From IMG/VR virus record IMGVR_UViG_2713896784_000029: a stretch of DNA of 38,978 nucleotides. One strand, 5' to 3'. The translations under genes and the position numbers were made by a program. Source of the stretch: a virus (taxonomy: Duplodnaviria > Heunggongvirae > Uroviricota > Caudoviricetes). Below the pieces are notes generated by a model. The model was not told where the DNA came from. It saw nothing but the letters and a program-made list of their open reading frames with translations, and ran no database searches. Positions 3,133-38,978 of the stretch are shown piece after piece. The first letter of the stretch is position 1, and each line of letters begins with the position of its first letter.

Positions 3133-4065
3133 ATGACTGATATTAACGATGTAATCAAGACCATTGATGAACTTATTGATGGCGGCGTACTGACGCAGTA
3201 TGCCATCGCCAGAGAGGCGGGAATTTCCGACGGCACATTATCGGCTTTCCGCAAGGGAAAATATAAAGGCGATAACGCTGCTGTGGCTGCTTCCCTGCGT
3301 TCCTGGTATGAGAACTGGAATAAACAAAGCGCACTGCCGGAACCGCCGCAGTTTGTGGAAACGCAGACAGTCCAGGAGCTGCGCGCACTGTTTCAGGCGG
3401 TTCGTCTGATGGGCTGTATTAACGTTATTGTGGGCGTACCGGGTGTGGGTAAAACGGCCACTGCCCGTAATTACTGCCAGGAGCAACCAAACACCTGGAT
3501 GATCACCCTGTCACCCGCGCACTCCAGCGTCACGGAGTGTCTGCTGGAGCTGGCCGATGCGCTGGGGATTGATTACACCCGCGCGAACAAAGGGGCATTA
3601 TCCCGCGCCATCCGCCGTCGCCTGATGGGAACGCGTGGACTGGTGATTGTGGATGAGGCGGATCATCTTGGTATTGACGGTCTGGAGCAACTCCGGGCAA
3701 TTCAGGACGCCACGGGGATCGGGATGGTGCTTATTGGTAACCCGCGCGGATTGTTTAAAGGTGGACGCCGCGCCTTTGATGATTTATCGCGCCTGTTCAG
3801 CCGTCTTGCCCGTACAAAACAACTTCGCAAGGCCAAAAAGGCGGATGTGCTGGCCATTGCCAGGGCATGGGGAATCAGTGGTGAGGCCGAGCTGGCCGTC
3901 ATGCAGGCTATCGCTGAAAAGCCGGGAGCGTTACGCGTTCTGACACATACGCTTAACCAGGCGTGGCTCACCGCCAGCGGTGAAGGCGCGGCGCTGACAG
4001 AAAAACATATTAATGCGGCCTTTAAAGAGGTTTATACCAACCCTGAATTACTCTCGCAGGTGTGA
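3133..4065 (+). CDS. B: transposition target-DNA activator B (AAA+ ATPase)
   Basis: 310 aa; Walker A GVPGVGKT, Walker B-like LVIVDEADHL; immediately downstream of A; RBS GAGAGG. Confidence 0.85.
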   Translation: MTDINDVIKTIDELIDGGVLTQYAIAREAGISDGTLSAFRKGKYKGDNAAVAASLRSWYENWNKQSALPEPPQFVETQTVQELRALFQAVRLMGCINVIVGVPGVGKTATARNYCQEQPNTWMITLSPAHSSVTECLLELADALGIDYTRANKGALSRAIRRRLMGTRGLVIVDEADHLGIDGLEQLRAIQDATGIGMVLIGNPRGLFKGGRRAFDDLSRLFSRLARTKQLRKAKKADVLAIARAWGISGEAELAVMQAIAEKPGALRVLTHTLNQAWLTASGEGAALTEKHINAAFKEVYTNPELLSQV

Positions 4066-4067
4066 TT

Positions 4068-4289
4068 ATGGCTGTATTTAATATTCCTGATATTTACGGA
4101 CGCTTTTACCTGGTTAATTTCGATAACGTCAAAGCAGTCTCCATGTCTGACAGTGAAGAATGTGGCGATTTACTCTTTGAATTTAATGATCGCACCCGAA
4201 TGGCAATATCGGCAGGACTTGATCGTGAAGGTGCGAAAGAAGCTTACAGCAATATTTGTCGCTTTATCGGTGCAAGACGGGTTAGTTAA
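4068..4289 (+). CDS. hypothetical early protein (kil position)
   Basis: ATG with AGGTG RBS overlapping B stop; AT-rich; no recognisable domain. Confidence 0.45.
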   Translation: MAVFNIPDIYGRFYLVNFDNVKAVSMSDSEECGDLLFEFNDRTRMAISAGLDREGAKEAYSNICRFIGARRVS

Positions 4290-4301
4290 ACGAGAGGTTA
4301 T

Positions 4302-4721
4302 ATGAAAATGCAGATACAGCAGGAAATCAATGTTCTCCACAGCTTTCGTGAGTTTAACAACAATGACTGTGAGGTTCGTGATTATATCTATGAATTGATG
4401 AACGGTGACGGTGTGTGTTTTCTGTTTATCGACCTGTATCAATGGTATGCAGACCAGCAGTGTGAATCTGTCCGGCAGCGTTTTGATTATGAGTGCTTTG
4501 ATGTGGACGTATGGGAAGGCCTGCGTTTTGGTTTTCTGATCCCGGGTGATTATCGCCGGGAGTGGCGACATAGTTACTCCATTCTTCGGGCAATCATGCG
4601 TGGCGAAACCCGAAAAATGCCGGGGATGGGTAAGGTTAATCGCGGCCTCCTGTTAGAGATAGCAGCAGCGCACATGAATCCATTACTGATACAACCGGAG
4701 TTTACTTATGAATTTGTTTGA
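4302..4721 (+). CDS. hypothetical early protein
   Basis: 139-aa ORF with GAGAGG RBS; function unknown. Confidence 0.5.
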   Translation: MKMQIQQEINVLHSFREFNNNDCEVRDYIYELMNGDGVCFLFIDLYQWYADQQCESVRQRFDYECFDVDVWEGLRFGFLIPGDYRREWRHSYSILRAIMRGETRKMPGMGKVNRGLLLEIAAAHMNPLLIQPEFTYEFV

Positions 4722-4938
4722 TTCACTGAATAACGCCCGTCGCCTGACCGAACTTGCCGGTGCGGTACTGGAACGCAGTAAGCGCTATCCGCAACGTTTT
4801 GCACTGAAAACCACGCCGCCGGTAGGCGAGGTTCAGGGGAGTGGTGAAGAAATTGAAATCACCGTTAAGACCAACGGCCTGCGCCGCCGTGTGAAGGCCA
4901 CCCGCATAAGCGGATGCACGGTTTACTGGGAAGTATGA
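4708..4938 (+). CDS. hypothetical early protein
   Basis: 76-aa ORF with start overlapping upstream stop (translational coupling); GGAG RBS. Confidence 0.4.
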   Translation: MNLFDSLNNARRLTELAGAVLERSKRYPQRFALKTTPPVGEVQGSGEEIEITVKTNGLRRRVKATRISGCTVYWEV

Positions 4939-5012
4939 AGTTACTTCATGGTTCGGCTCTGTCATCAGGCCAGACGCCGGGTCAGTTATCCGAACAAAAC
5001 GAGGACCAGAGG

Positions 5013-5285
5013 ATGAGTAAAGTCGTACGCATTATTTTCGAATACAAGGAGCACGTTATCCATAAAAACGCTGATGGAACAGTGCGCATGGGGGTAAGTC
5101 TGGACATACGTTCAACCGGGATAAAGCAGAAAGGTGATGGACCCGCCATGATTTTTGGAGTGGTTATGCTCGCGGAAAGCAGAGACTTTGCTGAACTTGT
5201 GGCAATGAAAGCCAGAGCGCTCATGAAAGATATGAACATGAGTTCCGGGGTTATTAAAGGTAATGAATTTAATCAGCAGGGGTAA
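5013..5285 (+). CDS. hypothetical early protein, tandem paralogue 1
   Basis: Internal ATG 5013 preceded by GAGGACCAGAGG; N-terminus MSKVVRIIFEYKEHV resembles the next gene. Confidence 0.5.
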   Translation: MSKVVRIIFEYKEHVIHKNADGTVRMGVSLDIRSTGIKQKGDGPAMIFGVVMLAESRDFAELVAMKARALMKDMNMSSGVIKGNEFNQQG

Positions 5286-5289
5286 TTCC

Positions 5290-5583
5290 ATGAGCAAAGT
5301 ACGCGTTATTTTTGAATTTGAGCATGTTTCGCATGACGAAAAACCGGCAGGCAATGACAGTGTTGAAGTGCATGAAAAGATTGGAGTGGATGTGAAAACA
5401 GAACGTGATACGGATAACAGGCCGACGTCACTCTGTGACGTTTATGCAAGCATTCTCCAGTATCACAGTCCTGTAATTATTCAGTTTCTCTCAGCGGAAT
5501 TTCAGGCATCTGTACAGGCTTTTGGGGCGGATGCCATCATTAAACGCCACCGTGTGCATAAAGCATCAGGCACACTGCAATAA
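5290..5583 (+). CDS. hypothetical early protein, tandem paralogue 2
   Basis: ATG 5290; N-terminus MSKVRVIFEFEHV parallels the upstream gene. Confidence 0.5.
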   Translation: MSKVRVIFEFEHVSHDEKPAGNDSVEVHEKIGVDVKTERDTDNRPTSLCDVYASILQYHSPVIIQFLSAEFQASVQAFGADAIIKRHRVHKASGTLQ

Positions 5584-5593
5584 GGAAAACAAA

Positions 5594-6124
5594 ATGGTTA
5601 AACGTGTTACAAAATTAAAGGCCGCAGCCGAGGCTGCACCGCAGACCCGCGAAGAAGTCAGCCGCGATATCCGCACCCTGGGCGATATTCAGCGAGAGGC
5701 GCTGCGCCTGGAAACGGCAATGAATGATGAAGTGGCAGAAATCACCGCCCGTTATACGCCGCAGATTGAAAACCTTAAAAAAGAAATCAAAGTGCTTTTT
5801 AAAGGGATTCATGACTGGTGTAAAACCAACCGCAATGAGCTGACGAACGGCGGCGAAACCAAAACTGCCAATCTGACCACCGGAACGGTGTCGTGGCGAC
5901 TGGGGAATCCATCATGCAGCGTCAGTCGTGATGTTGAAGGCGTGATTGAAATGCTGCGTCGTATGGGGCTTGAGCGCTTCATCCGCACGAAAGAGGAAGT
6001 GAATAAGCAAGCTGTCCTGGCAGAGCCGGATGCGGTGAAAGGGATTGCTGGTATTAAGGTGAATAAAGGCGCTGAAAGTTTTCATGTCGAGCCTTTTGAA
6101 CAGGACGTCGGACTGAATAAATAA
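5594..6124 (+). CDS. gam: Gam host-nuclease inhibitor (DNA-end binding, Ku-like)
   Basis: Translation from ATG 5594 (RBS AAGGAAAA); motifs IGDIQREALRLETAMNDEVAEIT, ELTNGGETKTANLTTGTVSWR and RFIRTKEEVNKQAVLAEP closely parallel Mu Gam. Confidence 0.85.
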   Translation: MVKRVTKLKAAAEAAPQTREEVSRDIRTLGDIQREALRLETAMNDEVAEITARYTPQIENLKKEIKVLFKGIHDWCKTNRNELTNGGETKTANLTTGTVSWRLGNPSCSVSRDVEGVIEMLRRMGLERFIRTKEEVNKQAVLAEPDAVKGIAGIKVNKGAESFHVEPFEQDVGLNK

Positions 6125-6208
6125 CACCGCATTAAATCTTTAAATATCACATCGTTTTAATTATGGCGCTTGCGTCAGGGGACTGCTCGCGCCTGAATGA
6201 GGCATATC

Positions 6209-6787
6209 ATGAGTATTAAATATCGTTATTTTAAAATGAATGAGCACGATTCCCGTCATTATCACCGGGAATGGCTTGATAGTGTTGGCAGGGAGCGCCA
6301 GAAATTGATTGATGATTTTCTCAGTAATCAGAATGCCAGAGGATATAGTTACTCCTGGTATTGTGGGGATTTTTTTGTCAAATCAATACTGGTGCATGAG
6401 GATGTTGATGTCGGAAGAAATAAACGGGTGTTGTCTGATAAATTTGATGAAGATGGCCGCGTTTTATTTTCAGTTAAGCCCGACCGCAGATTCAGAGAGG
6501 GAAAAAAACTGAACAAAGCACTGAATATCTTAAACGAGAAGTTAAAACAGCTTCCGTCATTCAGTACCTGGATGGTTAATAAACTGGACTGCTATTTTGA
6601 GGTTTTTGGTGTCAGCAACGGCCGCACAGTTATGGCGTGCTCTTCTGCCGGGTTCTATGGCGACAAAGGGGCTGTTGTGGTTCGTATTCCTGTCGGTGAA
6701 TCAGATAATGCCTTTTCACCTGAAAAGCTGCATCCGTCATTGATGGCAATCAAGCATTCCGAATTCATCGCAATAACGGAGGAATAA
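6209..6787 (+). CDS. hypothetical protein in AT-rich early insertion
   Basis: ORF in a visibly AT-rich stretch (about 6130-6560); ATG 6209 preferred (TGAGG RBS) over ORF-track start 6197. Confidence 0.45.
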   Translation: MSIKYRYFKMNEHDSRHYHREWLDSVGRERQKLIDDFLSNQNARGYSYSWYCGDFFVKSILVHEDVDVGRNKRVLSDKFDEDGRVLFSVKPDRRFREGKKLNKALNILNEKLKQLPSFSTWMVNKLDCYFEVFGVSNGRTVMACSSAGFYGDKGAVVVRIPVGESDNAFSPEKLHPSLMAIKHSEFIAITEE

Positions 6788-6790
6788 TTC

Positions 6791-7324
6791 ATGATTGATG
6801 CAAAAGTGCTTGAAGGGGTTAAAAACTGGCTGCGTATTTACGGACGTCTGACCTGCGGTGTTCTGGCTGAAAAAATGAATATGCCGCCATCCTCCATGGT
6901 TTATTTTCTGCGTGATGCGGTTGATGCAGGCGTGCTGACGGAATGTAACGGTTTTTATGATATTCCGCGTCCCCGCCCGGTGCAGCCGGTTCGTCGCAAA
7001 TGCAGCCAGGAATCTGCGGCTGATGATGTTCAGTGGTGCAGCTTCAGAAAATCCCTGCCGTGGATTGAAGGGCATGATATTCCGTCGATGGCGTGGGAAT
7101 TTGCTCAGGGCGTACTGACCTGCGAAACCGTTTATGTGGTGGCTGAAGTTGATGAGCAGGCCATGAAAGAAGGCGTGCCCCAGTTTGTGATGGCGTATAT
7201 CGACATCCGCCTGGGCGTCATTATCTGCGGTTTAAGCGGCTGGAATATCACCTCGCGCGTTCTGCGTTACCTGATTGTTGACCGGACGGCCGCGCCTGCC
7301 GGGATATCTGCGGAGGTGGCGTAA
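6791..7324 (+). CDS. hypothetical early protein
   Basis: 177-aa ORF tightly packed after previous gene; N-terminal 50 aa look like a winged-helix fold. Confidence 0.45.
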   Translation: MIDAKVLEGVKNWLRIYGRLTCGVLAEKMNMPPSSMVYFLRDAVDAGVLTECNGFYDIPRPRPVQPVRRKCSQESAADDVQWCSFRKSLPWIEGHDIPSMAWEFAQGVLTCETVYVVAEVDEQAMKEGVPQFVMAYIDIRLGVIICGLSGWNITSRVLRYLIVDRTAAPAGISAEVA

Positions 7325-7839
7325 TGTTCTTTAAAACATCAAACCCTTCCGCGCTGGCCGCGTGGCAAAAATATCAGCAGGACTGCCAGAAAGTTAAGGA
7401 TGAGGCAAAACGCCTTGAGGCCGTGCTGAATGTTGCGTGCCGATCGGTATTTGTATCCGGTATCAGTGGCTTTTGTTTTAAAGGGCTGCGCTTTATGGAT
7501 GACAAATATCCTTTTCATCGCGACTTATGGCGAAAACCGACTGCGTCGAATGGCTGGAGCTGCACACCGCGCACATCACGTATTCCCAAAGCCCTGCGCG
7601 TTGCCTCTGACGAACTTAACAGTCTGTGGCGTGAATATTCGCTCGTCACGTATGCCAGAACCGATGCCCTGTTGTTCTGGCTGGGCATTGACTTCTCAGC
7701 AATATTGCATGGTCCCGTGAAGTGGTTCTGCGTTGACGATGTGATTTATCTCCAGTGCGGCGTAAAACCCGCAAAACAGAGAATGACCGAAATTCTGCCT
7801 GATGAGTTTTATGCTGCCGAAAAGCGAGTCAGGGGGTGA
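7324..7839 (+). CDS. hypothetical early protein
   Basis: 171-aa ORF; start overlaps upstream stop. Confidence 0.45.
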   Translation: MFFKTSNPSALAAWQKYQQDCQKVKDEAKRLEAVLNVACRSVFVSGISGFCFKGLRFMDDKYPFHRDLWRKPTASNGWSCTPRTSRIPKALRVASDELNSLWREYSLVTYARTDALLFWLGIDFSAILHGPVKWFCVDDVIYLQCGVKPAKQRMTEILPDEFYAAEKRVRG

Positions 7840-7842
7840 TGT

Positions 7843-8394
7843 ATGATGATTTTACAACCCATGGGGCGAAAAGGCCGTGCACCCGCTCATGTTCGTGCAT
7901 GGACACCTGAAGAAGATGCGCTGCTGATTGCGCTTTATCCATCCACCCCGGTTAAGGATATTGCTGTCAGGGTAAAAAGAAGTTACTGGGGTGTATATAA
8001 CCGGATTGTTTTATTGCGCGGTACTTACCCGGAGTTGCTCAAATGCAAACGTCCCAGATTTAAACATGATGAAGATAAATTTATCCGAAAAAATGCCAGA
8101 ACAATGACCGGTAAGCAAATAGGAGAATATCTGGGGCGAGACCGGGACTCTGTCCACAATCGGGCGCGATATATTGGCGTAAGCATGAAAAAATACGGAG
8201 AGTTGCTGCCCTTCACCCGCATACCTGACGATGATGTTCGTCTTATTCGTGAATTACGGGATGCTGAATCACCACGGCGTCTTACCTTTAGGGAAATCGG
8301 CGAGAAATTTGAATTATCCGAGGGCACGGTGAGTTTTATTTATCACCGTCGTCGGACTGCCGAAGATGTTGTATTACGGGAGTTAATGCCATGA
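7843..8394 (+). CDS. hypothetical DNA-binding protein with three HTH-like repeats
   Basis: AGGGGG RBS; three internally similar ~50-aa segments each ending in a basic HTH-like helix (WGVYNRIVLLRG / VHNRARYIGV / VSFIYHRRR). Confidence 0.45.
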   Translation: MMILQPMGRKGRAPAHVRAWTPEEDALLIALYPSTPVKDIAVRVKRSYWGVYNRIVLLRGTYPELLKCKRPRFKHDEDKFIRKNARTMTGKQIGEYLGRDRDSVHNRARYIGVSMKKYGELLPFTRIPDDDVRLIRELRDAESPRRLTFREIGEKFELSEGTVSFIYHRRRTAEDVVLRELMP

Positions 8395-8723
8395 TAACGA
8401 CATTATTTGTTGAATCAGATGAACCCCTTGTGTGTGCCGCCGGAATGCCGGTCTGTGGCGGAACGCTGACCGGTGTTTATTTCGGGGATTTGCGCGGTTA
8501 TCCCTGGCATTCACTGAATGATGCTTTCCCGCCTGATATGGAGGCTGTCGTGCTGATTGTTCAGTATGGTCACAGGCAGGAACTGCGCATCGGCCATATG
8601 GGGTATGAAGGCTTTTTTATTGATGAAGAAACTGGAGCCTGCCTTGAAGATGAGGACGGACAGGTGACGCACTGGTGCCATATTTCAGCTTTACCGGAAT
8701 TACAGGAGACGCCCAATGGATGA
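8391..8723 (+). CDS. hypothetical early protein
   Basis: 110-aa ORF overlapping upstream stop (ATGA). Confidence 0.45.
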   Translation: MITTLFVESDEPLVCAAGMPVCGGTLTGVYFGDLRGYPWHSLNDAFPPDMEAVVLIVQYGHRQELRIGHMGYEGFFIDEETGACLEDEDGQVTHWCHISALPELQETPNG

Positions 8724-8856
8724 TCAAATAGTTGAATGTCCCACCTGTGGAAATGAAGCCCCGGAGTATCTGAAAGAGTGCCCACATTGTGGTGAGGTAA
8801 AATGTAATCACTGCGATATGGGCGACGACACTGCATGTATGAATTGTGAGGATTAA
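8716..8856 (+). CDS. small zinc-ribbon protein with four CxxC motifs (46 aa)
   Basis: Not in the supplied ORF track (under 60 aa). ATG 8716 after AGGAGA RBS; translation MDDQIVECPTCGNEAPEYLKECPHCGEVKCNHCDMGDDTACMNCED has CPTC, CPHC, CNHC, CMNC. Confidence 0.45.
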   Translation: MDDQIVECPTCGNEAPEYLKECPHCGEVKCNHCDMGDDTACMNCED

Positions 8857-8860
8857 TAAT

Positions 8861-9148
8861 ATGGAAAAAGAAATCAAATTTGCGCCTAAAGATATCGACG
8901 AAGAACTGGCTAAAATCGGCATGCTTGAGCGTATGCGGGACATTATCGAATATGCGATAAAAGAAAATCTTGCAGCCAGAGAAGCCCTTTTGATAATGGA
9001 GCGGGAGATTAACCTGATTAAGGATGCTGTATCTCTGGATAATAAAATAGCCCGCGAGGAATACGTTCGCCGCAGGCTCGGTGTTGATGGTTCAGCAATT
9101 CTTACATCTGAACATTATGCAAAAATCTTTAATCTTTTTTCGCGGTAA
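8861..9148 (+). CDS. hypothetical protein (AT-rich)
   Basis: ATG 8861 (MEKEIKFAPKD); helical, charged; 3' end overlaps a convergent minus-strand ORF by 20 bp. Confidence 0.45.
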   Translation: MEKEIKFAPKDIDEELAKIGMLERMRDIIEYAIKENLAAREALLIMEREINLIKDAVSLDNKIAREEYVRRRLGVDGSAILTSEHYAKIFNLFSR

Positions 9149-9368
9149 TGCCCATGCAGGCTCGGATATTGTCGAAATGCCAGTTTGTATTAATATATGA
9201 GCCATCCTGGTGTCCCTCTGCGCTTTGGGGTGCGGCACTTTTTTGAGCAATATTGATAATATGTGTTGCCTCCTCACGGGAAATAACCCCCTTATCGAAC
9301 AGGGTTACCATAAGATTTCCAGCCATTGTGAATGCGGCAACATCAAGGGCATTTTTTATATCTGACAT
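9129..9368 (-). CDS. hypothetical protein on opposite strand (AT-rich)
   Basis: 79-aa minus-strand ORF with RBS AAAAGGAAAAATCT-ATG; only convincing antisense-oriented gene in the early operon; AT-rich relative to flanks. Confidence 0.45.
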   Translation of the reverse strand: MSDIKNALDVAAFTMAGNLMVTLFDKGVISREEATHIINIAQKSAAPQSAEGHQDGSYINTNWHFDNIRACMGITAKKD

Positions 9369-9396
9369 AGATTTTTCCTTTTATGTTAATTGACAT

Positions 9397-9424
9397 GGCG
9401 GTGCGGTAACACCGCCCATTTTTT
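9397..9424 (+). terminator. intrinsic terminator-like hairpin upstream of gemA
   Basis: GGCGGTG-CGGTAA-CACCGCC stem-loop followed by CATTTTTTAT. Confidence 0.45.
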
Positions 9425-9438
9425 ATGGAGCCACGATA

Positions 9439-9951
9439 ATGAATCGCGCTTCCCTGATTACCTTAATACATGTCGCAAAACGCGATCTACAGCTTGACCG
9501 GGAGACCTATATATCCGCGCTGCTGGCAGCCACCGGCAAAACCAGCTGCCGGGATATGTCACCGGATGAGTTATCCCGCGTGCTGGATGTTTTCAAAAAA
9601 CGCGGTTTTAAAGTGCGCCAGAAGCCGGTTAACCGGGCCTTAAAACCGGGTACGGTGACCGCCAAAATTCGTGCCATCTGGAAGGTAATGCACCGGCAGG
9701 GCTTTATCTCTGATGGTGCGGAAACCGCCCTTAACCGCTGGGTGAAATCGCAGACGGCCGCGCAGAACGGCGGCGAAGGTGTGGCAAACTGGCAGTGGCT
9801 GGAGCAACACCCCGCCCTGGCCTCAGATGTGCTGGAGCGTCTCAAGCGATGGCACCGCCGCAAAATGCTGGCCGCGATGGGAATGCCCGAACGCACGCTG
9901 ATGGGGTATGACGCCGTTTGCAGGCAGTATGAAAAATCACTTCCCCGTTAA
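9439..9951 (+). CDS. gemA: GemA-like regulatory protein (Mu gp16 family)
   Basis: 170 aa; N-terminus LITLIHVAKRDLQLDRETYISAL fits the GemA/gp16 family pattern; position before Mor/C; GGAG RBS. Confidence 0.7.
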   Translation: MNRASLITLIHVAKRDLQLDRETYISALLAATGKTSCRDMSPDELSRVLDVFKKRGFKVRQKPVNRALKPGTVTAKIRAIWKVMHRQGFISDGAETALNRWVKSQTAAQNGGEGVANWQWLEQHPALASDVLERLKRWHRRKMLAAMGMPERTLMGYDAVCRQYEKSLPR

Positions 9952-32736: not shown

Positions 32737-32755
32737 AGGGTGCTGAATGCACCCT
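32737..32755. terminator. hairpin between convergent fibre and fibre-assembly genes
   Basis: AGGGTGC-TGAAT-GCACCCT stem-loop in the 34-bp gap between the two convergent stop codons. Confidence 0.4.
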
Positions 32756-32760
32756 CTGAA

Positions 32761-33282
32761 TTATTCCGGTTTTTCCGGCCAGGGAATCGCCTGGTAATGC
32801 CCCTCACTGGCAATATCATTAAAGTGCATTTCTTTAAGCTGTCGGATATACGCCATCCAGCGCGTCAGCTGTAATTTATTTTCATCGCTAATCATGTCCA
32901 GTTTTAATTCCGTTTTCCAGTCATCCACAGTTTCGTTGGCTTCCTGGAGCAGCGATGAGCGGCGCTTTTCAGCAACCGTCTTCCAGTTTACCGGCACCTT
33001 TGATATCAGGCCATCAGAAAACTGCCAGTTACCGTCAATATTCACACCTTCCGGCAGTTCGTCCACTTCAACAACAGTAAAACCTGCCGGATATAAAGCA
33101 GAGACATCTTCAGCAACAGAGCAGATAATACCCGTTACAGGCGAAATACAGAGTTTGTATTTCTTTGTGAAAAGCGGGATAGATTCATAAAAATCCCTTC
33201 CGTCCTCACTCTGGAAATACTGAACATCCTCACCATAGGGTTTGTGTTCCGGGTAATATCGTTTTACGTTAATAAGCTCCAT
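32761..33282 (-). CDS. tail fibre assembly protein (U'-like chaperone)
   Basis: Minus-strand ORF; start at ATG 33282 (MELINVKRYY) with AAGGTGA RBS; C-terminal W/R-rich region typical of fibre assembly chaperones. Confidence 0.7.
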   Translation of the reverse strand: MELINVKRYYPEHKPYGEDVQYFQSEDGRDFYESIPLFTKKYKLCISPVTGIICSVAEDVSALYPAGFTVVEVDELPEGVNIDGNWQFSDGLISKVPVNWKTVAEKRRSSLLQEANETVDDWKTELKLDMISDENKLQLTRWMAYIRQLKEMHFNDIASEGHYQAIPWPEKPE

Positions 33283-33361
33283 TATTTCACCTTGTTTTTG
33301 TTGAAAAGACAAAATCATCATATATTTATTCAGATAATCTGTTTTTTGAACTACTGCACTT

Positions 33362-33720
33362 TTATGCGCTGGAAGCTGTTTTCCACGAACCATCTATCAG
33401 AAACTGAACAGGTCGATAATATGCGGTTACCGTTGCATTACCATCACCAGCGACATCAAGCCCTGTAAGTACGCATCCGTCAGGAACCTCAAAAATATTA
33501 TATTGCATTCCAATCGTTGACCTTGAACCTCTTCGAATGCTTTGAACATAACGTGAGTCAGCCACAGACTGCGTCATCCCCGATGTAATATTTATATCCT
33601 GCGTTCCGTCAAATGGGACACCATTAATATTTCTTGGAGTGGCGAGTTTATTCGCTGCAACAGCCGCTCCGTTCGATGGCAGGGCATTCGCGGCCCTGTT
33701 TACAGTATCCCGTAAACCGA
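33362..33720 (-). other. alternative tail-fibre C-terminal coding segment (Sv'-like) without own start
   Basis: Minus-strand frame open to the segment border; translation ...GLRDTVNRAANALPSNGAAVAANKLATPRNINGVPFDGTQDINITSGMTQSVADSRYVQ... parallels the plus-strand fibre. Would fuse to the fibre constant part only after inversion. Confidence 0.6.
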
Positions 33721-33787
33721 AGGTTTCAGGGATGCCGTATATCTGCTTTAAAAGGCCTTTCCACCTCTTTTTAAGGAAGGTAAATAC

Positions 33788-34348
33788 ATGCTGATTGGCT
33801 ATATACGCGTATCAACAAATGACCAGAACACAGGTTTACAAAGAAATGCGCTGGAATGTGCAGGATGTGAGCAGATTTTTGAAGATAAAATGAGTGGTAA
33901 AACGACACAGCGGCCGGGACTGAAGCGGGCACTGAAGAAACTAAAACCCGGTGACACACTGATGGTCTGGAAACTGGACAGGCTGGGGCGCAGTATGCGC
34001 CACCTTGTTGCGCTGACAGATGAATTACAGCAACAGGGGATAAATTTTCGTAGTCTTACTGACAACATTGATACGTCAACCCCCATGGGGCGCTTCTTTT
34101 TTCACATAATGGGTGCGCTGGCAGAAATGGAGCGTGAATTAATTGTCGAACGGACACGGGCTGGTCTTGCAGCTGCCCGTGAAAGGGGACGAACCGGCGG
34201 CAGACCCCGTCGTCTCACGCAGGAACAATACGAGCAGGTCGGGCGTTTACTGGCCGGGGGTGTCAGTCGAAGACAGGTGGCACTTATTTTTGATATCGGC
34301 CTTTCAACCCTTTATCGTTATTATCCTGCGAGCGTTTCGGAAAAATAA
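33788..34348 (+). CDS. gin: serine recombinase, Gin/Hin/Pin/Cin-family DNA invertase
   Basis: 186 aa; MLIGYIRVSTNDQNTGLQRNAL... with catalytic Ser in RVST and C-terminal HTH (QVALIFDIGLSTLYRY); very close to Mu Gin as recalled. Confidence 0.9.
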   Translation: MLIGYIRVSTNDQNTGLQRNALECAGCEQIFEDKMSGKTTQRPGLKRALKKLKPGDTLMVWKLDRLGRSMRHLVALTDELQQQGINFRSLTDNIDTSTPMGRFFFHIMGALAEMERELIVERTRAGLAAARERGRTGGRPRRLTQEQYEQVGRLLAGGVSRRQVALIFDIGLSTLYRYYPASVSEK

Positions 34349-36851: not shown

Positions 36852-37097
36852 ATGCCAGAGATTAAAGGCACGGTTACTGAAGAGCTTGTCAAACAGGCAC
36901 TTTATTCTGAAGAAGTGAACCGCGTGCTGAAGGCGCAGGTTCGCAAGGATTTTGAGGCACAAATCGACGCATATGTTGATGAAGTGCTGGCCCGAATGGT
37001 TGGCCGTTCTCCGGCTGAAAACAGCACGGAAAATGATCCTCAACCCGTAGAGCAACCAGAGCCGGTTCAGCCCGGAACTGACGGTACTATGATGTAA
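36852..37097 (+). CDS. small acidic hypothetical protein
   Basis: 81 aa with strong RBS AAAAGGAGAA; followed by a terminator hairpin. Confidence 0.4.
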   Translation: MPEIKGTVTEELVKQALYSEEVNRVLKAQVRKDFEAQIDAYVDEVLARMVGRSPAENSTENDPQPVEQPEPVQPGTDGTMM

Positions 37098-37106
37098 CAA
37101 TACCGA

Positions 37107-37140
37107 CCGGCAGGTTTCCCTGCCGGGTGAGTTTGTTAAT
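37107..37140 (+). terminator. intrinsic terminator after small cargo ORF
   Basis: CCGGCAGG-TTTC-CCTGCCGG perfect 8-bp stem followed by GTGAGTTTGTT. Confidence 0.5.
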
Positions 37141-37415
37141 GCACGTTTTGTGTATTTTCCCTCCTGGGAGAACAGGCAGGACATATCAGCATCCTGAAAC
37201 AGGAAGCATTTTTGGGTTTGTATGTCTTGCCATTTTGAGATCGAGAACGGCGATAGATGAGCTGTAAGGGAGTCTTACAGGCAGGGCAAACAGGCTCTTT
37301 CATCCATGATAAAGATCTCCTTTTTATGCATCTCTGCTTTACAGGAGACCGGGGAATATCATAGGATACGCCACGAGCTCGAAGTAAAGCATTGATGCAA
37401 GTTTTTACAGATTGA

Positions 37416-37454
37416 CCCAGCATAGTTCCAGCTATGCTGGGTTTCACTTTTATG
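37416..37454 (+). terminator. strong intrinsic terminator inside the 0.57-kb noncoding stretch
   Basis: CCCAGCATAG-TTCCAG-CTATGCTGGG 10-bp stem followed by TTTCACTTTTAT; no annotated plus-strand ORF ends nearby. Confidence 0.55.
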
Positions 37455-37640
37455 TAGTATCCTGTTGATTTGAAACATACTACATATACGCGTGATCCTA
37501 CCTTCACTGTATAAAAAGTCAATAAAATGATCATTTTATGATCGTTTTCACCACCTAACTCTTCGTTTTCTTTAAGTAAATAATCACCTCCCTGAATCAT
37601 TGTTGATGACTTTTCAATCTATTTGTTGTATCAATTAAAC

Positions 37641-37670
37641 AAATCGAATCGATCGTTTTTGTCGATCGAT
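37641..37670. promoter_or_regulatory. mom-operon regulatory palindrome with two GATC (Dam) sites
   Basis: AATCGATCG-TTTTTGT-CGATCGATT inverted repeat about 45-75 bp upstream of com; GATC at 37651-37654 and 37664-37667. Confidence 0.5.
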
Positions 37671-37714
37671 TGCATGAGAAAGGCATCAACAACAAAGCAG
37701 GAGGTTATGCGGTC

Positions 37715-37915
37715 ATGTATCGAAACATACGGTGCCGACACTGCAATAAGCTACTGGCACGGGCCAGTTTCAGTTATCTGGAAGTAAAATGTCCGCGCTG
37801 TAAAACCCTCAATCAAATCACATCTCCGAGCGCCACAGAGCACCCCACATACACAAGGAAATCCTGTCGTGGGGAACAGAAAGCAAGTCACATCCCGAAT
37901 CATCAGCACGCCTGA
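37715..37915 (+). CDS. com: Com zinc-finger translational activator of mom
   Basis: [30 protein letters not shown] parallels Mu Com (IRCKNCNKLL...IRCPRCK); ORF overlaps the mom start as in Mu. Confidence 0.8.
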
Positions 37916-38606
37916 ACTTATTCGCTATAACGACAATATCGTTGGTTATGGCTCCCGTGAGTTGCGGGTTGAGACAATAAGTTGCTGGCTGGCCAGACTG
38001 GTCATCGTCAATAAACATTACAGCCACCGTTTCGTAAATAACTCCTACCTTCATCTGGGCATATTTTCAGAACGGGAACTTGTTGGCGTAATGCAATGGG
38101 GTTACGCCCTTAACCCAAACAGTGGTGCACGCGTCGTAACGGGTACGCAGAACCGAGAATATATGGAGCTTAACCGGCTATGGCTGCATGACTGTATGCC
38201 GAGAAACTCCGAATCAAGGGCAATCAGTTACGCGCTCAAGCTAATCAGGCAGCTTTATCCGCAGGTACAGTGGGTTCAGTCGTTTGCAGATGAGCGTTGT
38301 GGCTGTCTTGGTGTCGTGTATCAGGCAAGCAATTTTGATTATGTAGGCAGCCATGAATCAATATTCTATGAACTTGATGGCGAGTGGTATCACGAGATTT
38401 GCAGGAATGCCATTAAACGAGGCGGACAACGAGGTGAACATCTGAGGGCTAATATTGACAGAGCCAGTGTTCATAAGTTCCGACAGTTTCGTTACATCCG
38501 GTTTCTGAACAAGAGGGCCAGAAAACGCCTCAACACAAAGCTATTCAAAGTCCAGCCTTACCCAAAACCACAAACAGTTAAAACTGGTTTGAAAGAGAGT
38601 GAATGA
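37869..38606 (+). CDS. mom: Mom DNA-modification protein
   Basis: 245-aa ORF immediately downstream of and overlapping com, last gene before the right end, as in Mu; exact start uncertain. Confidence 0.7.
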
Positions 38607-38640: not shown

Positions 38641-38732
38641 AGCGCCGATTTAGTATCAAATAAGTTGCGTATCGGCGTTTTTCAGCGGTATCAAATGAAA
38701 TGCAAATCGGTATCAAAAAAATCGCCGCGCTA
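38641..38732. repeat. putative prophage right end (attR-like) repeats
   Basis: Three copies of (A/G)GTATCAAA at 38652, 38687, 38710; CGGCGTTTTTC resembles the CGTTTTTCG core of Mu end sites; flanking inverted GCGCCGATTT / AAATCGCCGCGC. Confidence 0.35.
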
Positions 38733-38777
38733 TACTTGCTGCAAGGTTATCCCGCCGTTGAAGCTGCATTAGGTTTT

Positions 38778-38978
38778 ATGCTTCCGGCACTCTTTATGAG
38801 TTTCCTGCTCGCCTCTTTTCAGCGCAAACAATCTCTTTGCGTTACCGCAGCGTTAGTTGGTGCCCTTGCAGGCGTAACGCTATTTTCTATTCCCGTCGCC
38901 ATTCTGGCAGGCATTGTCTGTGGCTGCCTCACTGCGTTAATCCAGGCATTCTGGCAAGGAGCGCCCGATGAGCTATGA
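38778..38978 (+). CDS. small integral membrane protein ORF at window edge (possibly host flank or truncated host gene)
   Basis: Two hydrophobic helices (LPALFMSFLLASF, ALVGALAGVTLFSIPVAILAGIVCGCLTALI); frame is open upstream to 38664; the next ORF starts at an overlapping ATG at the last bases of the window. Confidence 0.3.
   Translation: MLPALFMSFLLASFQRKQSLCVTAALVGALAGVTLFSIPVAILAGIVCGCLTALIQAFWQGAPDEL

Follow-up and report, generated by a model that had tools for sequence, protein, structure and literature searches.

The ea genes of phage P22 have stood among the "known unknowns" since the 1980s, and the EaC family has carried its name since the PL operon of P22 was sequenced. EaC shares its genomic class with Mu Gam, with Abc1 and Abc2 of P22 and with Lar-type proteins, all encoded by non-essential genes of early operons and adjacent to EaC-type genes in several phages. 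These proteins manage host DNA-end processing or restriction; the EaC family differs from them in that it has no sequence or fold similarity to any. Our search of the searchable literature returned no paper on DUF5420 or PF17457 and no functional study of eaC or of the EaC protein, eaC being cited as a gene name only, within genome papers. One P22 paper reports that a deletion from eaC to eaE yielded no viable phage; as several genes were spanned and a marker was inserted, this result is uninformative on eaC itself. Among Mu-like phages, ORF11 of SfMu was described as having no homologue in Mu or D108 (PMC4406740). We find that SfMu ORF11 is a member of the EaC/DUF5420 family, and that it has a counterpart in the phage analysed here.

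The window, i.e. the whole stretch of 38,978 nucleotides of the IMG/VR virus record IMGVR_UViG_2713896784_000029, contains an AT-rich ORF between gam and gp11. Its first 12 kb are 97% identical to a Mu-like phage inserted in the Stx phage LC727895, and a search of 5,426 complete E. coli genomes found the gam-gp11 backbone in 232, one instance being prophage Sp18 of O157:H7 Sakai. The AT-rich ORF is a real early gene of an Sp18-type Mu-like E. coli prophage, in the semi-essential early region. Gam, whose start was positioned by alignment to a 176-aa homologue in locus L001, and gp11, which aligns with Mu_11, are the left and the right conserved flanks of the slot (Table 1). The window begins within an ORF on the minus strand (1-606), at the place of the repressor gene c in Mu, and the left prophage end seems to lie outside it; at the other extremity, a terminal ORF (38700-38978) encodes a hydrophobic protein and may be host sequence.

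Table 1. Features of the gam-gp11 slot and of its surroundings (positions of the window).
Feature	Position	Strand	Remarks
gam, Mu Gam / Ku-like DNA-end binding protein	5594..6124	+	Upstream neighbour; Pfam Phage_Mu_Gam 3.8e-39; phrog_491 1e-66
Inverted repeat GGCGC-N19-GCGCC	6165..6193	+	gam-ORF spacer; left cassette boundary; kept in the window, Sakai Sp18, HH35 and Mu
GAGG, Shine-Dalgarno of the AT-rich ORF	6199..6202	+	6 nt ahead of ATG 6209; direct sequence reading
AT-rich ORF, type A EaC/DUF5420-family early accessory protein	6209..6787	+	CDS, 192 aa
ACGGAGGAATAAttcATG	6776..6793	+	Right cassette boundary; ORF codons T-E-E-stop contain the GGAGG ribosome-binding site of gp11
gp11 homologue (Mu_11)	6791..7324	+	Directly after the AT-rich ORF; Pfam Gp11_C 8e-40; phrog_1949 1e-105
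gp12 homologue (Mu_12/E13)	7324..7839	+	phrog_2314 9e-83
Myb/HTH protein, 183 aa	7843..8394		After gp12; phrog_323, "transcriptional regulator, D5-like"

The frame is open without interruption from 6197 to 6787 on the plus strand. The ATG at 6209 is the likely start, since a Shine-Dalgarno motif precedes it and both the 192-aa database homologues and the family alignment agree with it. At the other end, the final codons ACG GAG GAA TAA (T E E stop, 6776-6787) provide a GGAGG ahead of the gp11 ATG, and the same T-E-E-stop/SD junction is present in Sp18. The ribosome-binding site of gp11 is thus supplied by the stop region of the ORF. Neither a sigma-70-like promoter nor a plus-strand terminator was detected between 5500 and 7500, and an Rfam scan of the window gave no match. 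As the ORF has no promoter- or terminator-like site of its own, it is read along with gam, gp11 and gp12 from the early transcript, and its product is consequently made during lytic growth.

The early region of this phage and that of Mu part company beyond gp12 too, as Mu carries the small genes Mu_13 and Mu_14 where the window has the 7843-8394 protein; the latter gives Myb/SANT and sigma-70 region 4-like HTH matches, both weak. Further on, a 46-codon ORF (8716-8856) contains the cysteine pairs CPTCG...CPHCG...CNHC...CMNC and looks like a zinc-ribbon mini-protein.

Judged by sequence, the AT-rich ORF encodes a divergent EaC/DUF5420-family protein; the prototype of this family is EaC of the P22 PL operon. 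The ORF product passes the Pfam model PF17457 (DUF5420) with 52.5 bits for a cut-off of 26, the match spanning residues 8-193 and positions 2-181 of the 184 of the model; phrog_2260 is matched at 1.2e-39 over 1-192 of 192. Both PHROGs and Pfam label these entries "unknown function". When a family profile of 112 sequences, with the window ORF as first row, was compared with P22 EaC, hhalign returned a probability of 99.5% (E 9.6e-23, 188 columns). In tblastn, the "EaC protein" of Vibrio phage H188 connects the ORF (5e-7) with P22 EaC (2e-24); it is 35% identical to EaC of P22 and its relatives; besides, NCBI gives the P22-type proteins both names, "Eac protein" and "DUF5420 family protein". The full-length homologues collected by an exhaustive profile search fall into 163 clusters at 50% identity, and the representatives are nearly all single-domain proteins of 170-210 aa. 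The nearest relatives outside E. coli are 192-aa Salmonella proteins (47-52% identity), located in the same slot, directly ahead of gp11, in Mu-like prophages. The preliminary description had left this ORF without known function: no functional record was indeed found in the searchable literature, and the remote homology search now places the ORF in a named family.

The set of motifs that defines the family consists of a Y-F strand, a PxRxKxGK loop, FS, AG, IP and a C-terminal EIKxSEFIAxTEE. The ORF keeps Y7, F8, P91, R94, G98, K99, F118, S119, A147, G148 and P161, and its residues I181 to E192 correspond to the C-terminal motif. Like the ORF product, P22 EaC and the proteins matched by PF17457 and phrog_2260 are full-length single-domain proteins of 180-210 aa. 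P22 EaC also shares with it an N-terminal Y-x-Y-F strand followed by a long helix, a P/G-x-x-x-x-K-x-G-K/R loop, a C-terminal helix, and early-operon expression, the gene following others for recombination or anti-RecBCD functions. The differences are nevertheless considerable. The ORF product shares only about 16-25% identity with the proteins of the P22 type and of Vibrio H188; at the C-terminus it reads IKHSEFIAITEE-stop where P22 EaC has ITYGQFYDIANAKEDEEETAE; and its gene lies between gam and gp11 of a transposable Mu-like phage, whereas that of P22 EaC precedes xis-int in a lambdoid phage.

The preliminary description had pointed to this ORF as more AT-rich than its neighbours, and windowed GC calculation bears this out. 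The GC content of 6209-6787 is 0.420 (42.0%; GC3 0.430), against 0.503 in the left 600 nt, 0.530 in the right 600 nt and 0.533 (53.3%) for the window. Its z is -2.1; ranked against every 579-nt window, it falls in the bottom 3.7% for the window and in the bottom 3.8% for the early region 4060-9400, so that the dip is real and a uniform composition is ruled out. On a fine profile the trough begins in the gam-ORF spacer (0.358 at 6120-6239), reaches its minimum at 6300-6600 (0.37-0.40) and extends to about 6600. The dip is not unique: it is one of about six low-GC islands of the window, the comparable ones being 1-1100, 3975-4600, 8680-9490, 32750-33900 and 37026-38097, and two early genes, 4062-4289 (GC 0.408) and 8846-9148 (GC 0.403), are even lower than the AT-rich ORF. 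In 579-nt windows the last four of these islands have a GC of at most 0.43; the two in the early region cover the kil-like ORF 4062-4289 and ORF 8846-9148, and the other two belong to the late/right-end region. These further islands may be other exchangeable cassettes.

The comparison of related phages gives this composition a context. In E. coli the slot is occupied by two kinds of gene: type A, that of the window, is rare (9 of the 5,426 complete genomes), and type B, represented by the 180-aa ECs_4953, is found in 214 of them, in Sp18 and most related prophages. The type B protein is 25% identical to the window protein and clearly belongs to the EaC family (hhalign 99.6%). These E. coli "alleles" are two paralogous lineages. 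ECs_4953 of Sp18 and SfMu ORF11 have the slot, the boundaries, the TEE-stop/SD junction and the family in common with the ORF; they differ from it by belonging to the common type B lineage, of 180 aa and a GC of 0.475-0.479. Despite the 25% identity of their slot proteins, type A and type B prophages have flanks about 96% identical. DNA similarity between them ends just past the inverted repeat of the gam-ORF spacer and resumes at the last codons of the gene. This repeat was considered as a terminator or structured RNA and rejected, as its folding energy is unexceptional (z -0.53) and it has no T-run or terminator pattern.

Other Mu-like phages show further states of the slot. In E. coli HH35 it is nearly empty, with a 14-codon ORF, MKYVYIVINNVVGK (L006:2124-2168), which may be a deletion remnant, given a leader and initial codons similar to those at the 5' end of type B EaC genes. 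By contrast the Salmonella Mu-like prophage L023 (IMGVR_UViG_2663762818_000004) carries a type B gene (L023:5450-5998) followed by a type A gene (L023:6001-6579), the tandem pair preceding gp11-gp12; the former product is 37% identical to ECs_4953 and the latter 48% identical to the window protein. A 212-aa protein is encoded in L023 at the place held by gam in the window. Some Salmonella Mu-like prophages also have an extra gene, of 179 aa and without Pfam hit, between gam and the EaC-type gene (L003:5381-5920); neither BLASTP nor hhalign linked its product to EaC, and it was rejected as a paralogue, which indicates that the slot can hold other cargo. In every Mu-like case examined the EaC-type gene is below the GC of its flanks: 0.475-0.479 against 0.51/0.52 in the Sp18 type, and 0.47 against 0.56/0.55 in Salmonella. 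A related-locus search of genome contigs gave no confirmed locus.

In Mu itself, no CDS lies in the interval from the end of gam (6325) to the start of Mu_11 (6424). Mu_11 was tried as the positional homologue of the ORF and rejected, as it is the gp11 orthologue; BLASTP between the two gave an E of 0.085 on an 11-residue stretch. The codons right before the gp11 start of Mu (AF083977; L002:6403-6420) are nevertheless CAG ATT ACT GAG GAA TAA (Q I T E E stop), so that Mu retains ACTGAGGAATAAaacATG at the gp11 junction without the gene. These terminal codons left ahead of gp11 suggest that Mu most likely lost an EaC-type gene by deletion, its end being kept as the ribosome-binding site of gp11.

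Altogether, the slot is recombination-prone: in related phages it contains a type A gene, a type B gene, a tandem of the two, or no gene at all. This exchangeability explains the AT-rich composition. With the remnant in Mu and both types in tandem in L023, the slot looks ancestral rather than recently inserted, and foreign acquisition fits no better than differential loss or an exchange between paralogues. The idea of a separate acquisition, drawn from composition in the preliminary description, is thus upheld in one part only: the gene does have a separate history, being absent from Mu and replaced by a 25%-identical paralogue in flanks about 96% identical, but a recent foreign insertion is not what these data favour.

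The preliminary description had also considered that a conserved homologue in the Mu core would speak against an accessory gene. No orthologue exists in Mu at this position, as the empty gam-Mu_11 gap indicates; on the other hand a core protein of Mu, gp12, appears to be a very distant relative. Comparison of the EaC profile with a gp12 profile by hhalign gave a probability of 87-93% (E 4e-6 to 2.6e-7, about 155 columns); the real pair scored 41.6-45.1, the reversed control 8.6 and 80 shuffled controls at most 21.2. In addition the EaC HMM finds gp12 ORFs, at a marginal level (E 0.0015-0.012), and nothing else. Narrow sub-family profiles and Pfam DUF5420 miss gp12, and the gp12 HMM, built from alignment A8, matches gp12 ORFs only and not the AT-rich ORF. 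We conclude that Mu gp12 (Mu_12, L002:6954-7484) is probably a distant paralogue of the EaC family, at superfamily level at most. Gp12 (formerly E13; PF26885 Phage_Mu_Gp12) aligns with EaC from end to end, the motifs FFKT / PRxSRIP / EILsDEFyAA following one another in the same order, and is encoded in the same early operon, two genes downstream of the ORF slot; unlike the ORF it is conserved in Mu itself. Gp11 was likewise considered as an EaC paralogue and rejected.

The AT-rich ORF is under purifying selection, somewhat relaxed. Its pN/pS, calculated from ten IMG/VR copies whose identity to the window protein is 93-100%, is 0.32, compared with values of 0.10 (gam), 0.22 (gp11) and 0.18 (gp12), and the frame is intact in all 10 copies, with no indels and no frameshift. 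The protein is confidently predicted as a compact alpha/beta fold: the AlphaFold2 model built on the family alignment has a pLDDT of 95.2 and a pTM of 0.87, with the elements in the order b1-a1(long)-b2-b3-b4-b5-a2-a3-b6-b7-b8-b9-b10-a4, and the distant member P0100 (pLDDT 95.4) is modelled with the same order. We took a Foldseek E below 1e-3 or a TM above 0.5 to a PDB chain as the sign of a solved fold. No significant match to the PDB was obtained with either model, the best E being 0.07 for the window protein and 0.33 for P0100 and all TM values being below 0.26; in particular MutS domains, RnlA/TBP-like, CYTH and the MotA C-terminal domain stayed outside these thresholds for both. The MutS-family chains at the top of both lists and RnlA were rejected (TM < 0.2, rmsd > 10 A), the superpositions of MutS-family chains on the EaC models giving an rmsd of 10-25 A. 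A C3-like ADP-ribosyltransferase (C3larvin, 4tr5) came up at E 0.09, but this alignment starts in the expression tag "YFQGSH" and is hence a tag artefact; it covers N-terminal helices only, up to the YRG region, and leaves the catalytic R / S-T-S / Q-x-E core uncovered. Foldseek gave no ADP-ribosyltransferase match for either model. A BFVD search returned only uncharacterised phage relatives, and a search of PDB sequences with three profiles returned nothing significant.

Conservation within the family is sparse. Only G98, G148 and P161 are conserved at 90% or more; the best-conserved polar feature is the near-universal basic loop P-x-R-x-K-x-G-K, at the N-terminus of helix a2, and the C-terminal motif K-H-S-E of the subfamily is T-Y-G-Q in P22 EaC. 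As no set of polar residues is conserved across the whole family, the protein would be a stand-alone binding protein and not an enzyme. We looked for the signature of a DNA mimic or of a strongly basic DNA binder and found none, the family pI ranging from 4.5 to 9.7 with a median of 7.7.

Phage genes for DNA ends and recombination recur in the neighbourhood of family members. In P22 the order is erf-abc1-abc2-...-eaC-xis-int, and two other phage loci read YqaJ-RecT-DUF1351-x-EaC (L027) and ERF-YqaJ-x-SSB-EaC (L035), the operon of the former also holding Lar-like and other anti-restriction genes. Vibrio phage H188 combines exoVIII, a Cas4-like exonuclease, a helicase, an RNaseH-like protein and EaC; Akira and Bas79 have EaC, a ParB-like protein, (a methyltransferase) and RusA; and in Mu-like phages the EaC-family gene shares the early operon with Gam. 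Since members thus share operons with Gam, Abc1/Abc2, Erf or RecT with an exonuclease, SSB, RusA and ParB-like proteins, the ORF product would act, during lytic development, on the DNA-end and recombination transactions of phage or host DNA, or on a host factor that monitors them. As the PDB offers no significant structural match, it is the gene neighbourhood that points to this DNA-related role.

Our best inference is therefore that the ORF encodes a non-enzymatic binding protein of the lytic cycle, involved in DNA-end transactions or in counter-defence. As a whole, we lean towards an EaC-family early gene in a variable slot, whose product is a lytic binding protein tied to DNA ends and recombination or to a host factor that monitors them. 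Several observations temper this preference. Early-left operons of temperate phages pack accessory genes beside recombination genes anyway, so that the association may be positional; the near-neutral pI of the family lacks a strong DNA-binding or DNA-mimic signature; and in some contexts (L029, L030, L037 and L038, on short contigs) no recombination gene is found near the EaC member.

Some of the same data could be read as those of an outright counter-defence gene, the EaC-type protein neutralising a host immunity, for example a sensor of phage end-protection or RecBCD inhibition, and diversifying in an arms race. The position of the gene, early, lytic and beside Gam, is in line with this; so are the 25%-identical occupants of about 96% identical backbones, the 0, 1 or 2 copies per phage, the pN/pS more relaxed than the 0.10-0.22 of the neighbours, and the anti-restriction genes, Lar-like and others, of the L027 operon. 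According to a preprint, moreover, phages become targets of Gabija through Gam-Mu and exonuclease/annealase modules, which license it (PMC12407980); this would give phages with such modules a motive for a linked countermeasure. However, this preprint makes no mention of the EaC family (PMC12407980), no named anti-defence protein of PHROGs or Pfam is similar, and a pN/pS below 1 gives no whole-gene sign of positive selection. With E values up to 1 allowed, no PADLOC model was matched by the ORF, by its Sp18-type paralogue or by gp11 and gp12, and NCBIfam gave no match for the ORF. No known family thus lends support to the host-takeover or anti-defence function considered in the preliminary description. 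Two genes of phage D3, orf53 and orf66, are Gabija-licensing genes (PMC12407980); orf53 was rejected as an EaC relative, the EaC HMM having found nothing in D3 27,000-42,000, a stretch that includes orf53 and ends within orf64, orf66 being outside. On balance we regard this explanation as unlikely, if worth keeping in mind. A broader version of it would make EaC/DUF5420 and gp12 one superfamily, its fold having no solved relative, of lytic factors that travel with Gam, Abc, and exonuclease plus Erf/RecT modules and counter host systems sensing or making use of RecBCD inhibition (Gabija- or retron-type guards), the slot being an arms-race locus; this combination we hold to be quite unlikely.

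The relationship with gp12 leads to a different proposal, that the ORF product is a partner or modulator of the gp11-gp12 module, a diverged extra copy of the gp12 fold working with gp11 (which has a winged-helix-like N-terminus) in a shared early function. In all Mu-like phages examined the gene stands immediately before gp11, its stop overlapping the gp11 SD, and gp12 is a probable distant paralogue. But the family is found without gp11 and gp12 outside Mu-like phages, and Mu and the HH35-type phages retain gp11 and gp12 without an EaC-type gene, which makes such a partnership rather improbable.

Composition and cassette-like variability are also typical of morons, and the ORF might be expressed while the prophage is repressed, as a factor of lysogenic conversion or of superinfection exclusion. 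We find this very improbable: the ORF has no promoter- or terminator-like signal around it and is embedded in the early operon, to which it is translationally linked; homologues occur in Akira-type and Bas79 phages, with no integrase annotated in the regions viewed; and the model is an all-soluble alpha/beta fold, with no evident signal peptide or membrane segment. Finally, although Mu and some Sp18-type prophages lack the gene without obvious harm, the view that it is a fortuitous ORF, or a remnant decaying within an AT-rich spacer, is effectively refuted by the 163 clusters of full-length homologues, the pLDDT of 95, the purifying selection (pN/pS 0.32) on intact frames, and the proper SD and start codon.

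Retaining the lytic binding protein as the preferred reading, we consider the ORF as a well-placed "known unknown" and not as a new kind of system. It is otherwise an ordinary mosaic accessory gene, modest in itself. The EaC family spans P22-like, Mu-like, Vibrio and Akira-type phages, and no solved structure is related to its confidently predicted fold; the slot of the Mu-like phages constitutes a natural experiment, in which prophages that are nearly isogenic have one of the two types, both of them or none. As these prophages differ by the content of the slot, the phenotype conferred by EaC is directly testable. The value of the locus is thus to offer a clean genetic system for EaC/DUF5420, and perhaps for gp12; the link with gp12, which we consider likely, would open a first way into part of Mu's uncharacterised, semi-essential early region.
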